From: Escherichia coli
Lineage (GTDB): Bacteria; Pseudomonadota; Gammaproteobacteria; Enterobacterales; Enterobacteriaceae
Assembly: GCF_017348835.2 (NCBI RefSeq)
Contig: NZ_CP071375.1
Length of the DNA: 64,000 bases
Direction: 5' to 3' (one strand)
Part shown: one piece after another, positions 33,652 to 40,787 of the stretch
Position numbering within the stretch: position 1 is the stretch's first letter
How the letters are laid out: every line of letters starts with the position of its first letter
Made by a program: the position numbers and the translations under genes
Notes under the pieces: model-generated
The model's input: only the letters and a program-made list of their open reading frames with translations
Told to the model about the DNA's origin: nothing
The model's database searches: none

Positions 33652-34257
33652 ATGAGTATAAAAAATCTACCTGCCGACTATTTATTGGCTGCACAACAGG
33701 GTGATATCGATAAAGTAAAAACCTGCCTTGCGCTGGGTGTCGATATTAATACCTGCGATCGTCAGGGAAAAACGGCAATTACGCTGGCAAGTTTATATCA
33801 GCAATATGCCTGCGTTCAGGCATTAATTGACGCCGGAGCGGATATTAATAAACAAGATCATACCTGTTTAAATCCTTTTTTAATTAGCTGTCTGAACGAT
33901 GATTTAACGCTACTACGAATTATTTTACCGGCTAAACCCGATCTTAATTGCGTAACCCGTTTTGGCGGTGTCGGCCTGACGCCTGCCTGTGAAAAAGGCC
34001 ATTTAAGTATTGTAAAAGAGCTTTTGGCGCATACGGAAATTAACGTTAATCAGACCAACCATGTAGGCTGGACGCCGCTGCTGGAGGCGATTGTGCTTAA
34101 TGATGGCGGGATTAAACAGCAGGCGATTGTCCAGTTATTGCTGGAACACGGGGCCAGCCCGCACATGACGGATAAATATGGCAAAACGCCGCTGGAACTG
34201 GCGCGGGAACGGGGCTTTGAAGAGATTGCGCAGTTACTGATTGCCGCAGGTGCATAA
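33652..34257 (+). CDS. yahD: Ankyrin-repeat protein YahD
   Basis: ORF 33652..34257; repeated G-TPL/A-L ankyrin motifs. Confidence 0.9.
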   Translation: MSIKNLPADYLLAAQQGDIDKVKTCLALGVDINTCDRQGKTAITLASLYQQYACVQALIDAGADINKQDHTCLNPFLISCLNDDLTLLRIILPAKPDLNCVTRFGGVGLTPACEKGHLSIVKELLAHTEINVNQTNHVGWTPLLEAIVLNDGGIKQQAIVQLLLEHGASPHMTDKYGKTPLELARERGFEEIAQLLIAAGA

Positions 34258-34296
34258 ACCGGGAGGCTTGCTATCAACACACCAGAAAAACGGTGT

Positions 34297-35160
34297 GTGT
34301 GGGCGCTAACTGCGGATGCGGATTTTCTGGCGCAGCGGGGGCAAGGACAGGTTGAACAGGTCTTTGCCAGAGCGGTAAATATCGCACTCCCGGCTCGCCA
34401 GCAGTTGCTGACGCTGCTTTGTGAAGAGTACGACAATGCGCCAAACAGTTGTCGGTTGGCACTCACTCACTTTGATGGTCTGTTCCGGCATGGTGATAAG
34501 GTTCAGTTTGACGATCAAGGCATTACGGTTGGTCAACATCTTCATATAGAGATGAGTCGTTGTCGGCGTTGGCTGTCCCCAACCTTGCAAATGACCGCTG
34601 TGAATTTTCACCTTATCGCCTGGCAACAGTGGCACGACATTATTCATCAGCACCTGGGGGAAAATGAAACCCTGTTTAATTATCGCGGCGATAATCCGTT
34701 TTATCAGGCGTTAAATAAAGAATTACATATTAAACGACGGGCAGTTATTCAGACAGTAAACGATAAGCAAAATATCGCCTCAGCGGTCGCCAGTATGATG
34801 GGGTTAGGGATTGGCCTTACGCCATCAGCCGACGATTATTTAACAGGTCTGGCGCTTATTTTATTTATTCCCGGGCATCCGGCGGAAAAATACAAAGAGG
34901 AATTTTATCTCGGTCTGCAACGCGGCAGAAATAATACCACATTATTAAGTGCCATAACGCTGGAAGCCGCATTACAACAACGCTGCCGGGAAAATATTCA
35001 TCGTTTTATTCACAACATTATTTATGACATTCCTGGGAACGCAACTCAGGCAATAGAAAAAATTAAACATATTGGCTCCAGTTCCGGCTGCGACATGCTG
35101 TATGGCATGGCCGATGGTTGTGCGCTGAGCCAAACCTACGGAGGGAATTATGTCAGTTAA
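34297..35160 (+). CDS. yahE: YahE (DUF2877; paralog of YlbE)
   Basis: ORF 34297..35160, 287 aa. Confidence 0.85.
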   Translation: MWALTADADFLAQRGQGQVEQVFARAVNIALPARQQLLTLLCEEYDNAPNSCRLALTHFDGLFRHGDKVQFDDQGITVGQHLHIEMSRCRRWLSPTLQMTAVNFHLIAWQQWHDIIHQHLGENETLFNYRGDNPFYQALNKELHIKRRAVIQTVNDKQNIASAVASMMGLGIGLTPSADDYLTGLALILFIPGHPAEKYKEEFYLGLQRGRNNTTLLSAITLEAALQQRCRENIHRFIHNIIYDIPGNATQAIEKIKHIGSSSGCDMLYGMADGCALSQTYGGNYVS

Positions 35161-38444: not shown

Positions 38445-39395
38445 ATGAAAGAGCTTGTGGTCGTTGCCATTGGTGGCAACAGCATTATCAAAGATAACGC
38501 CAGCCAGTCGATTGAGCATCAGGCGGAGGCGGTGAAAGCCGTCGCCGATACGGTGCTGGAAATGCTGGCTTCCGATTACGACATTGTGCTGACCCACGGC
38601 AACGGGCCGCAGGTCGGTCTGGATTTACGCCGCGCGGAGATAGCCCACGAGCGCGAAGGGCTGCCCTTAACGCCGCTGGCGAACTGTGTGGCAGATACGC
38701 AAGGCGGCATTGGCTACCTGATCCAACAGGCGCTGAACAACCGGCTGGCGCGTCACGGCGAGAAGAAAGCCGTCACCGTGGTGACTCAGGTGGAAGTGGA
38801 TAAAAACGATCCAGGTTTTGCCCATCCCACCAAGCCCATCGGCGCATTCTTCAGTGAAAGCCAGCGTGACGAATTACAAAAGGCAAACCCTGACTGGTGT
38901 TTTGTTGAAGATGCCGGGCGGGGCTATCGCCGCGTGGTCGCCTCGCCGGAACCGAAACGTATTGTCGAAGCACCTGCCATTAAAGCGCTGATCCAACAAG
39001 GTTTTGTCGTAATTGGCGCGGGCGGCGGTGGAATTCCGGTAGTGCGTACTGACGCGGGGGATTACCAAAGCGTGGACGCGGTTATCGACAAAGATCTCTC
39101 TACCGCGCTGCTGGCCCGTGAAATTCACGCCGACATTCTGGTGATCACCACCGGGGTGGAAAAAGTGTGTATTCATTTTGGCAAACCCGAGCAGCAGGCG
39201 CTGGATCGCGTAGATATTGCCACCATGACTCGCTATATGCAGGAAGGACATTTCCCGCCCGGCAGCATGTTGCCAAAAATCATCGCCAGCCTGACGTTCC
39301 TGGAACAGGGCGGTAAAGAAGTGATTATCACCACGCCGGAATGCCTGCCAGCGGCGCTGCGCGGTGAAACGGGCACCCACATTATTAAAACGTAA
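38445..39395 (+). CDS. yahI: Carbamate kinase-like protein YahI
   Basis: ORF 38445..39395, 316 aa; amino-acid kinase fold (VVAIGGN). Confidence 0.9.
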   Translation: MKELVVVAIGGNSIIKDNASQSIEHQAEAVKAVADTVLEMLASDYDIVLTHGNGPQVGLDLRRAEIAHEREGLPLTPLANCVADTQGGIGYLIQQALNNRLARHGEKKAVTVVTQVEVDKNDPGFAHPTKPIGAFFSESQRDELQKANPDWCFVEDAGRGYRRVVASPEPKRIVEAPAIKALIQQGFVVIGAGGGGIPVVRTDAGDYQSVDAVIDKDLSTALLAREIHADILVITTGVEKVCIHFGKPEQQALDRVDIATMTRYMQEGHFPPGSMLPKIIASLTFLEQGGKEVIITTPECLPAALRGETGTHIIKT

Positions 39396-39404
39396 GGACG
39401 TAAG

Positions 39405-40787
39405 ATGAAAGAAAACAATAGCCGCCGTGAGTTTTTGAGCCAGAGCGGTAAGATGGTCACCGCCGCCGCGCTGTTTGGTACCTCTGTGCCGCTCGCCCAT
39501 GCGGCGGTCTCTGGCACCACAAACTGCGAAGCGAACAACACCATGAAAATCACTGACCCGCATTACTATCTCGACAACGTGCTGCTGGAAACTGGATTTG
39601 ACTACGAAAATGGCGTGGCGGTGCAGACCCGCACGGCGCGCCAGACCGTGGAGATTCAGGACGGCAAAATTGTCACCCTGCGCGAGAACAAGCAGCATCC
39701 GGACGCCACGCTGCCGCACTATGACGCTGGCGGTAAGCTGATGCTGCCCACCACCCGCGACATGCATATTCATCTCGACAAAACCTTTTACGGCGGGCCG
39801 TGGCGCTCGCTCAATCGTCCGGCAGGCACCACCATCCAGGACATGATTAAGCTTGAGCAGAAAATGCTGCCGGAGTTGCAACCATACACTCAGGAACGGG
39901 CGGAGAAACTGATCGATTTTTTGCAGTCGAAAGGTACTACCATTGCCCGCAGCCACTGCAATATCGAACCAGTTTCCGGCCTGAAAAATCTGCAAAATTT
40001 GCAGGCGGTGCTGGCGCGACGTCAGGCGGGCTTTGAGTGTGAAATCGTCGCCTTCCCGCAGCACGGTTTGCTGCTGTCGAAATCGGAACCCTTAATGCGT
40101 GAAGCAATGCAGGCGGGTGCGCATTACGTCGGCGGGCTGGACCCGACCAGTGTCGATGGCGCGATGGAAAAATCCCTCGATACCATGTTCCAGATTGCGC
40201 TGGACTACGACAAAGGCGTCGATATTCACCTGCACGAAACCACTCCGTCGGGCGTGGCAGCCATCAATTATATGGTTGAAACGGTAGAGAAAACGCCGCA
40301 ACTGAAAGGTAAGCTGACCATCAGCCACGCCTTTGCGCTGGCTACGCTCAACGAACAACAGGTAGATGAACTGGCGAATCGGATGGCGGCGCAGCAAATT
40401 TCTATCGCCTCGACGGTGCCGATTGGCACGCTGCATATGCCGCTCAAACAGTTGCACGACAAAGGCGTAAAAGTGATGACTGGCACTGACAGCGTTATCG
40501 ACCACTGGTCGCCTTATGGTCTGGGCGACATGCTGGAAAAAGCCAATCTCTACGCGCAGCTCTATATTCGTCCTAACGAACAGAACCTCTCCCGTTCGCT
40601 GTTTCTAGCCACTGGCGATGTATTGCCGCTGAATGAAAAAGGCGAGCGTGTATGGCCAAAAGCGCAGGATGACGCCAGCTTTGTGCTGGTGGACGCCTCC
40701 TGTTCCGCCGAGGCGGTGGCGCGTATCTCGCCGAGAACCGCAACGTTCCATAAAGGGCAACTGGTGTGGGGGAGTGTGGCAGGTTGA
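39405..40787 (+). CDS. yahJ: Amidohydrolase-superfamily deaminase YahJ (Tat-type signal)
   Basis: ORF 39405..40787, 460 aa; RREFLSQSGK twin-arginine-like N-terminus; metal-dependent hydrolase motifs. Confidence 0.9.
   Translation: MKENNSRREFLSQSGKMVTAAALFGTSVPLAHAAVSGTTNCEANNTMKITDPHYYLDNVLLETGFDYENGVAVQTRTARQTVEIQDGKIVTLRENKQHPDATLPHYDAGGKLMLPTTRDMHIHLDKTFYGGPWRSLNRPAGTTIQDMIKLEQKMLPELQPYTQERAEKLIDFLQSKGTTIARSHCNIEPVSGLKNLQNLQAVLARRQAGFECEIVAFPQHGLLLSKSEPLMREAMQAGAHYVGGLDPTSVDGAMEKSLDTMFQIALDYDKGVDIHLHETTPSGVAAINYMVETVEKTPQLKGKLTISHAFALATLNEQQVDELANRMAAQQISIASTVPIGTLHMPLKQLHDKGVKVMTGTDSVIDHWSPYGLGDMLEKANLYAQLYIRPNEQNLSRSLFLATGDVLPLNEKGERVWPKAQDDASFVLVDASCSAEAVARISPRTATFHKGQLVWGSVAG

Follow-up and report, generated by a model that had tools for sequence, protein, structure and literature searches.

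Pairs of a catabolic carbamoyltransferase and a carbamate kinase include ArcB/ArcC, the putrescine carbamoyltransferase system of agmatine deiminase and ygeW-yqeA in the purine cluster of Escherichia coli. In these pairs, carbamoyl phosphorolysis is followed by substrate-level formation of ATP, a logic that the yah operon of E. coli (yahD, yahE, yahF, yahG, yahI and yahJ, with the divergent regulator gene yahB) would share. Here we analyze this locus in a 64,000-nucleotide (nt) stretch of E. coli contig NZ_CP071375.1 (assembly GCF_017348835.2), hereafter the window, in which the yah segment occupies positions 33652-40787. Judged from its protein families, the locus is an AllFGH-type carbamoyltransferase and carbamate kinase set with distinctive accessories.

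The transferases of the pairs named above have the aspartate/ornithine carbamoyltransferase fold, whereas YahEFG is of the AllFGH type, which is unrelated to that fold (PMC11326118). In 2024, AllFGH was identified as oxamic transcarbamylase, which converts oxalurate and phosphate to carbamoyl phosphate and oxamate (PMC11326118), and AllK is the catabolic carbamate kinase in the oxamate branch of allantoin breakdown under anaerobic conditions (PMC11326118, PMC9843812). A sequence-only reading of the window had assigned these two roles to the allantoin-region genes, as both papers bear out; the yah genes are mentioned in neither of them. In E. coli, AllH is required for full oxamic transcarbamylase activity, and plasmids with only allFG or only allGH restored 7% and 16% of the oxamate (PMC11326118). 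This residual oxamate could, as we infer, reflect weak substitution by YahE or YahF.

A second set of AllFGH-type genes

The sequence-only reading had made the paralogy with fdrA, ylbE, ylbF and their kinase stand or fall with alignment, and all four pairs align clearly with the K-12 proteins: YahF with AllF (FdrA; 39% identity over 513 amino acids (aa), E 6e-103), YahG with AllG (YlbE; 45% over 415 aa, E 8e-120), YahE with AllH (YlbF; 25% over 273 aa, E 3e-10) and YahI with AllK (YbcF; 38%, E 7e-57). The regulators YahB and AllS form a fifth paralogous pair, absent from that reading (39% over 283 aa, E 6e-73). The paralogy is already present in databases, in the RefSeq and Pfam labels "AllH family", "YlbE family" and "AllG".

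The two sets comprise the same five protein types and Pfam families, with overlapping stop and start codons and tight packing in both, and the chemistry expected of YahEFG and YahI is that of AllFGH and AllK: a ureide and phosphate would yield carbamoyl phosphate and an amide, and the carbamoyl phosphate would then yield ATP. They differ in gene order, which is E(H)-F-G-I in yah, with the AllH-like gene first, and F-G-H-K in the allantoin region. The boundary between F and G is also shifted: YahF is shorter than AllF (515 versus 555 aa) and YahG longer than AllG (472 versus 419 aa), residues 8-53 of YahG corresponding to the C-terminal ~45 residues of FdrA. Unlike the allantoin region, the yah operon does not have allB, allC, allD or allE nearby. 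Its neighbours are instead an ankyrin protein, a deaminase of the CodA/AtzC type with a twin-arginine translocation (Tat) signal and, outside E. coli, a dedicated permease.

Profile searches with the window proteins assigned YahE to PF11392 AllH (E 3.5e-28) and YahG to PF06545 AllG (E 6.9e-89). YahF contains the Pfam domains Ligase_CoA (E 1.8e-31) and CoA_binding (E 2.6e-11), scores above the cut-off of the FdrA subfamily (NF004760, 492 bits versus 433), is related to the E. coli FdrA structure (PDB 3DMY) and shares an identical G-x-P-H-P-M-I-D-P block with AllF. An HMA_AllF_N domain was found in YahF orthologues and was not reported for YahF of the window. YahI matches the carbamate kinase model NF009007 over residues 1-316 (650.6 bits, cut-off 266) and falls just below the cut-off of the arcC equivalog TIGR00746 (347 bits versus 358).

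Given that RefSeq names YahF "acyl-CoA synthetase FdrA", YahF and YahG might instead be a synthetase or ligase that depends on coenzyme A (CoA), with no carbamoyltransferase activity. The two Pfam domains of YahF and its likeness to the alpha subunit of succinyl-CoA synthetase fit this idea. The paralogue AllFGH, however, transfers carbamoyl between oxalurate and oxamate without CoA in the assay (PMC11326118), and an ATP-grasp beta subunit is missing. Moreover, F and G are linked to a carbamate kinase gene in different phyla, and Pfam and NCBI now name the families after oxamate carbamoyltransferase. We therefore regard a CoA ligase as extremely unlikely.

Fusions bear on how the subunits belong together. 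Within the AllG family (3360 representatives at 50% clustering) there are F-G fusion proteins of ~800 and ~1000 aa. In Zophobihabitans entericus, a single open reading frame (ORF) of 799 aa (3353-5770) comprises YahE and YahF in frame; there the YahE C-terminus continues directly into MSTKIVIKKNTYFDSVSLMS, the N-terminus of YahF. Together with the overlapping start and stop codons, these fusions indicate that F, G and E belong to one enzyme. Of the genes in the operon, yahE evolves fastest, with a median identity of 54% versus 90% for yahG, and one clade dispenses with it.

Distant relatives and the question of oxalurate

YahG is ~72% identical to the protein of PDB entry 3CLQ, which we take to be from Enterococcus faecalis. 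E. faecalis is a species with the classical oxalurate-induced oxamic transcarbamylase. Relatives of the 3CLQ sequence, 475 aa long and 73-87% identical to it, are widespread in Bacilli. A locus of Peribacillus simplex contains a divergent PucR gene followed by AllH, AllF, AllG, an ankyrin-TPR protein and a carbamate kinase. Its AllF is 64% identical to YahF, its AllG 75% to YahG and its carbamate kinase 54% to YahI, and the N-terminal part of the ankyrin-TPR protein, encoded between AllG and the kinase, is 34% identical to YahD. Nearby are two amidohydrolases of the YahJ subfamily (41% and 44%), both above the cut-off of NF005312 and without signal peptides, as well as a TRZ/ATZ-type amidohydrolase, an amidase of the allantoate amidohydrolase type, an NCS2 permease and a cyanase.

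A more distant cluster from a metagenome, also regulated by PucR, combines AllH/F/G and carbamate kinase with two paralogues of the yah permease described below (38% and 33%), an isochorismatase-family hydrolase and a uracil phosphoribosyltransferase. On another metagenome contig, a ring opener of the cyanuric acid hydrolase/barbiturase family stands directly 5' of AllF-like and AllG-like genes; this is a single instance, and the ring-opener gene (7394-8504; 350 bits on TIGR02714) is frameshifted in the assembly. The linkage of F, G and carbamate kinase thus holds across phyla. On this evidence, the yah-type set is an orthologous group separate from allFGHK, older and present also in Bacilli, and is repeatedly embedded in the catabolism of nitrogen heterocycles.

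Since chemistry and subunit set are the same as in AllFGH, YahEFG and YahI could nonetheless be a second oxalurate system, i.e., an isozyme of oxamic transcarbamylase with its kinase, having another source and inducer than AllFGH-AllK. Environmental parabanate or oxalurate, or oxidised purine debris, might then be the source rather than allantoin. Indeed, in two Bacilli loci the long YahG type (70-75% identical) belongs to the only triad present, and one of the two encodes exactly the 3CLQ sequence. Against this stands the behaviour of K-12, in which YahEFG does not replace AllFGH: strains without allF, allG or allFGH produced no oxamate despite intact yahEFG (PMC11326118). Either YahEFG has another specificity and is not an oxalurate enzyme, or it was not induced or expressed there. 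Moreover, YahF and YahG are 39-45% identical to AllF and AllG and 64-75% to the orthologues in Bacilli, which points to two old, separate orthologous groups and usually means separate roles. An oxalurate isozyme is in our view unlikely.

YahJ, a predicted exported deaminase

YahJ matches the amidohydrolase subfamily NF005312 (715 bits, cut-off 447). Its N-terminus reads MKENNSRREFLSQSGKMVTAAALFGTSVPLAHA/AV (slash, predicted cleavage), a twin-arginine signal with a motif of the type S/T-R-R-x-F-L-K, a hydrophobic region and an A-x-A site; the signal peptide spans ~39405-39503 (residues 1-33, ...SRREFLS...AHA/A). Residues R7, R8, F10 and L11 are invariant in an alignment of 10 orthologues, and the motif is present in 77 of the 79 distinct YahJ N-termini from 80 species, the exceptions being one RH variant and one N-terminally truncated protein. 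The Tat signal that had been read from the window is real, and a textbook example of its kind. One study counts YahJ among predicted Tat substrates whose function is unknown and gives, for a yahJ deletion strain tested in mice, a competitive index of 0.70 (PMC7549933).

The closest solved structures are N-isopropylammelide hydrolases of the AtzC type (6NBO, E 4e-44; 2QT3, 4CQB), followed by cytosine deaminase. We mapped the YahJ residues through the structure paper on AtzC (PMC4577212) and an alignment to CodA of the window (59464-60744). The metal ligands H121, H123, H275 and D362 of YahJ align with AtzC H60, H62, H217 and D303, and the catalytic H308, Q219 and W368 with AtzC H249, Q160 and W309; counterparts in the CodA alignment are H214, H246, Q156 and W319. 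At the positions that set specificity in AtzC, the Lys and His are kept: K126 of YahJ corresponds to AtzC Lys65, which binds the second ring oxygen and is Thr in CodA, and the H-L-H-E stretch (H277, E278) combines AtzC His219 with Glu217 of the CodA HxxE motif. Ser363 occupies the position of AtzC Asn304 and CodA Asp314. YahJ is 25% identical to the CodA of the window and differs from it by the Tat signal, the predicted compartments being periplasm for YahJ and cytoplasm for CodA. Additionally, YahJ has its own NCBIfam subfamily, NF005312, apart from AtzC/TrzC and CodA.

A 2025 study found that cytosine-like pi-systems are hydrolysed by every enzyme of the CodA cluster (PMC12828455). By this rule, and with its residue set of the CodA/AtzC type, YahJ most likely acts in the periplasm, where it would deaminate an amino-oxo azine by hydrolysis. 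The metal-dependent bile salt hydrolases of two 2026 preprints were considered and set aside as not relevant, as they are of the NfdA type and AtzC is only a landmark there.

The window encodes both a cytoplasmic cytosine deaminase and the predicted-exported relative YahJ, codB and codA lying at 58215-60747, ~18 kb (kilobases) downstream of the yah operon.

YahD, YahC, YahB and the control region

In the profile search, YahD of the window gave ankyrin matches; no signal peptide was found in any of 61 YahD orthologues. yahD stays beside yahJ where EFG-I is absent. YahC is DUF1097 in RefSeq and had no NCBIfam match. The best NCBIfam models for YahB were AllS and PunR, both below cut-off (NF007501 AllS, 268 bits versus 372), and YahB is accordingly a paralogue of AllS and not AllS itself. 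In 59 of 80 species loci, its gene points away from the operon.

Within 200 base pairs (bp) upstream of yahD we found four blocks, one of them a LysR-type palindrome, that are at least 80% conserved over 19 loci, from Escherichia to Aeromonas, Providencia, Pragia and Erwinia, including minimal yahD-yahJ loci. A promoter scan found no consensus sigma-70 promoter in the region upstream of yahD, which would fit dependence on an activator, presumably YahB. Inside the operon, a scan for promoters and terminators gave nothing above chance.

Operon forms and a permease missing from E. coli

Scanning one genome per species with an alignment of YahJ gave 80 loci, whose gene content was typed by tblastn. 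In what follows B stands for yahB, C for yahC, D to J for yahD to yahJ, and P for a gene of a ~515-aa permease between yahG and yahI. The most frequent form, B / D-E-F-G-P-I-J, occurs in 31 loci from Citrobacter, Serratia, Buttiauxella, Atlantibacter, Providencia, Proteus, Zophobihabitans and Budvicia. The E-less form B / D-F-G-P-I-J is found in 13 loci (and one partial) of Enterobacter, Lelliottia, Leclercia, Silvania and Huaxiibacter, also in Aeromonas; here yahD and yahF are separated by ~110-150 bp in the Enterobacter group and by 283 bp in Aeromonas. Escherichia, Pseudocitrobacter, Kluyvera, Raoultella and Klebsiella share B-C / D-E-F-G-I-J (10 loci and one partial). Five loci, from Erwinia, Cedecea and relatives, have only B / D-J (D-J-B in Pragia), and about 11 have J alone (Xenorhabdus, Shewanella, Labrys, Wohlfahrtiimonas). 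In 57 of the 80 loci, F, G and I are all present.

P is present in 46 loci, and E. coli carries an array of repetitive extragenic palindromic (REP) sequences, or bacterial interspersed mosaic element (BIME), at exactly its position. On this synteny, E. coli has lost the dedicated transporter of the operon. P and yahC are mutually exclusive, yahC being found in 10 loci, all without the permease, and in none of the 46 with it. P has about 12 hydrophobic segments and is conserved more strongly than any other gene of the operon, at a mean column identity of 90%. Searches of Pfam, NCBIfam and PDB gave no match; NCBI names it "xanthine permease" and JGI "AGZA family", which are source labels only. 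We also tried to predict its fold with AlphaFold2, and the model was unusable (predicted local distance difference test score 41.9) because the alignment was shallow, at 90% identity.

With its permease gone, the E. coli operon could be a cryptic remnant, a stalled pathway whose genes have merely not yet degraded. The REP array where 46 species carry the permease gene would suit this, as would the literature searched, in which no phenotype or inducer of the operon was found save the yahJ deletion (PMC7549933). However, comparison of E. coli with E. albertii (yahB and yahF by codon alignment) gave ratios of nonsynonymous to synonymous substitution rates (dN/dS) of 0.016 for yahB, 0.064 for yahC, 0.061 for yahD, 0.19 for yahE, 0.042 for yahF, 0.026 for yahG, 0.025 for yahI and 0.047 for yahJ. 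With values of 0.02-0.19, all eight genes are under purifying selection and have been kept in Escherichia despite the missing permease. The genes are, moreover, intact in ~93% of 5426 E. coli genomes, and the permease-less form with yahC is common to five genera. A mere remnant is thus very unlikely. In E. albertii NBRC 107761, yahF (5616-7169) has a length difference of 6 nt and one internal stop within the interval, which may be real or an artefact of coordinates or assembly.

The minimal forms raise a different alternative, in which one regulator and promoter serve two independent units acting on different compounds: YahB, YahD and an ammonia-releasing deaminase YahJ on the one hand, and on the other an inserted cassette of F, G (with or without E), permease and I. 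yahB-yahD-yahJ without the cassette in Erwinia, Cedecea and Pragia, yahJ alone in Xenorhabdus, Shewanella and Labrys, and the different compartments of the two units all speak for such a split. So does E. coli plasmid pJnd12_1 (IncFII), which carries at 1525-9958 the order LysR / ankyrin - DUF2877 - FdrA - DUF1116 - "xanthine permease" - carbamate kinase, i.e., the cassette with yahB and yahD, and is broken by an ISL3 element at the expected position of yahJ (E. coli plasmids hold ~117-119 matching places, of which pJnd12_1 is the one inspected). Nonetheless, the cassette always lies inside the yahD-yahJ pair and behind the same conserved control region, and proteins of the YahJ subfamily, an ankyrin protein, AllH/F/G and the kinase are clustered again in Peribacillus, in another phylum and with another regulator. 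Two separate units are possible, if on the doubtful side.

A proposed pathway

The reading we favour, and hold to be fairly probable, is that yahDEFG-(REP)-IJ is one operon under YahB for salvage of, and energy gain from, a nitrogen-rich heterocycle or ureide. What we infer is each chemical step, which compound is the substrate and how the reactions of YahJ and YahEFG are connected; gene content, paralogy, signal peptide, catalytic residues, synteny, fusions and purifying selection are observed. YahJ would fold with its metal in the cytoplasm and be exported by the Tat route to the periplasm, where it would hydrolytically deaminate an amino-oxo azine whose pi-system resembles that of cytosine or ammelide. 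Either the deaminated product or an N-acyl-urea formed from it by ring opening would then enter the cell, in most species via the ~515-aa permease. In the cytoplasm, YahF, YahG and YahE would form one AllFGH-type enzyme in which phosphate cleaves the carbamoyl-N bond of the ureide to give carbamoyl phosphate and an amide, YahEFG acting on a different substrate than AllFGH. YahI could then convert carbamoyl phosphate and ADP to ATP, NH3 and CO2, while YahD may serve as a cytoplasmic ankyrin partner.

We favour this pathway because F, G and I are linked, because the permease family recurs beside F, G and kinase (33-38%) and because Peribacillus repeats the set with deaminase and ankyrin protein. 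The paralogy with a proven system, the profile matches, the fusions and codon overlaps, the catalytic set and Tat motif of YahJ, the conserved LysR-type box, the low dN/dS values and the high prevalence in E. coli speak for it as well. Furthermore, F and G elsewhere adjoin enzymes acting on N-acyl-ureas, namely the ring opener of the cyanuric acid hydrolase/barbiturase family and the isochorismatase-family hydrolase.

Several points weigh against it. The operon encodes no ring-opening amidohydrolase, which leaves no enzyme for turning the YahJ product into a linear ureide. YahJ is predicted to be periplasmic and YahE, YahF, YahG and YahI cytoplasmic, with no permease in the E. coli operon. yahE is absent from the otherwise complete operons of 14 species, despite the need for AllH in the paralogous enzyme for full activity (PMC11326118). 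The deaminase and the transferase are separable, as the five species with yahD-yahJ and no EFG-I and the ~11 with yahJ alone illustrate, and as does pJnd12_1, which has EFG, permease and kinase and lacks yahJ. In addition, yahEFG did not rescue oxamate formation in the K-12 mutants described above, and in the literature searched we found no functional study of the yah genes, which are treated as uncharacterised.

Food for speculation is a broader version of the favoured pathway, in which the yah set would be an ancient route of Enterobacterales and Bacilli that gains ATP from amino-oxo-azines. Its substrates would be an s-triazine or an aza- or oxo-pyrimidine (ammelide, cyanurate, 5-azacytosine, barbiturate) or oxidised-purine debris of the imino-parabanate type. 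The AllFGH-type enzyme would phosphorolyse the N-acyl-urea or the ring itself, so that no classical ring-opening hydrolase would be needed. The role of the ankyrin protein would be to escort the deaminase, already loaded with metal, or to hold it back until its export by the Tat route. We consider this extended scenario decidedly unlikely.

Layout and prevalence in E. coli

The coordinates of the locus are collected in Table 1. The six ORFs of the segment lie where the sequence-only reading had placed them, all on the plus strand, and profile matches agree with the gene content it had listed (ankyrin, DUF2877, FdrA-like, DUF1116, carbamate kinase and Tat amidohydrolase, with LysR-type yahB). 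The overlaps it had noted are also real, with 11 nt between yahE and yahF and 1 nt (TGATG) between yahF and yahG. yahI and yahJ are 9 nt apart, and a Shine-Dalgarno sequence precedes each start codon in the operon.

Table 1. Features of the yah locus and its control region, in window coordinates
Feature	Position	Strand	Description
yahB	31873-32805	-	LysR-type regulator, AllS paralogue; divergent upstream of operon
yahC	32897-33394	-	small DUF1097 membrane protein (RefSeq name); divergent upstream
control region	33502-33611	+	conserved blocks 5' of yahD
block TTGCACTACCGCACAC	33502-33517	+	conserved 5' of yahD
block GTTGAACATCATTCAAC	33530-33546	+	conserved 5' of yahD; T-N11-A palindrome of LysR type
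block GGCGAATTAAATTTAAGCGGG	33562-33582	+	conserved 5' of yahD
block TTGCTATTCT	33602-33611	+	conserved 5' of yahD; resembles extended -10
yahD	33652-34257	+	201-aa cytoplasmic ankyrin-repeat protein
yahE	34297-35160	+	AllH-family (DUF2877) subunit; GTG start
yahF	35150-36697	+	AllF/FdrA-family subunit, resembles succinyl-CoA synthetase alpha
yahG	36697-38115	+	AllG-family (DUF1116) subunit, long-N-terminus type
REP/BIME array (former "yahH")	38128-38395	no strand	2.9 copies of 93-bp unit
yahI	38445-39395	+	carbamate kinase paralogue
yahJ	39405-40787	+	Tat-signal mononuclear-metal amidohydrolase, CodA/AtzC cluster

E. coli PE164 and F2_81 match the stretch at 100% identity, and RefSeq uses the same gene names there (with yahF as fdrA); K-12 has the same layout of the yah segment. 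The REP/BIME array fills the 330-bp gap between yahG and yahI. The K-12 ORF "yahH", a "hypothetical protein" in the window, lies wholly within the array and is probably not a gene. This element accounts for 142,586 matching places in E. coli genomes, and an apparently patchy distribution of the operon (3253 of 5426 genomes) was rejected as an artefact of REP copies in the query. With REP-free queries, yahE-G was found in 5020 and yahI-J in 5035 of the 5426 complete E. coli genomes, which makes the operon near-core in the species.

Sequence similarity along the operon is uneven. For yahI-J of the window, only 2 E. coli records reach an identity of at least 99%, and 1032 fall within 90-95%. In two Pseudocitrobacter loci, YahF, YahG, YahI and YahJ are 96-99% identical to the window proteins, and YahD is 71-72%, YahE 55-58% and YahC 72-74% identical. 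This mosaic suggests that the F-J segment was recently recombined or transferred between the genera.

Downstream, the window has ~5 kb extra between yahJ and yahK (41086-46183), whereas in K-12 yahK lies directly 3' of yahJ. The insert contains an ASCH-domain gene together with an ABC transporter of four genes, for which the annotation gives two permeases, an ATPase and a binding protein of the autoinducer-2 type.

Outlook

The main new information here comes from comparative genomics: the permease-bearing form of the operon, the separable yahD-yahJ pair, the E-less operons, the fusions and the Bacilli sets under PucR. Recognition of the AllFGH type of carbamoyltransferase goes back only to 2024, and one substrate is known for it so far. 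If our favoured reading is true, it would give a testable function to six linked "y-ome" genes of E. coli that are present in ~93% of strains and under purifying selection. A second specificity would make the AllFGH type an enzyme family with which gut and soil bacteria gain energy by breaking down ureides.

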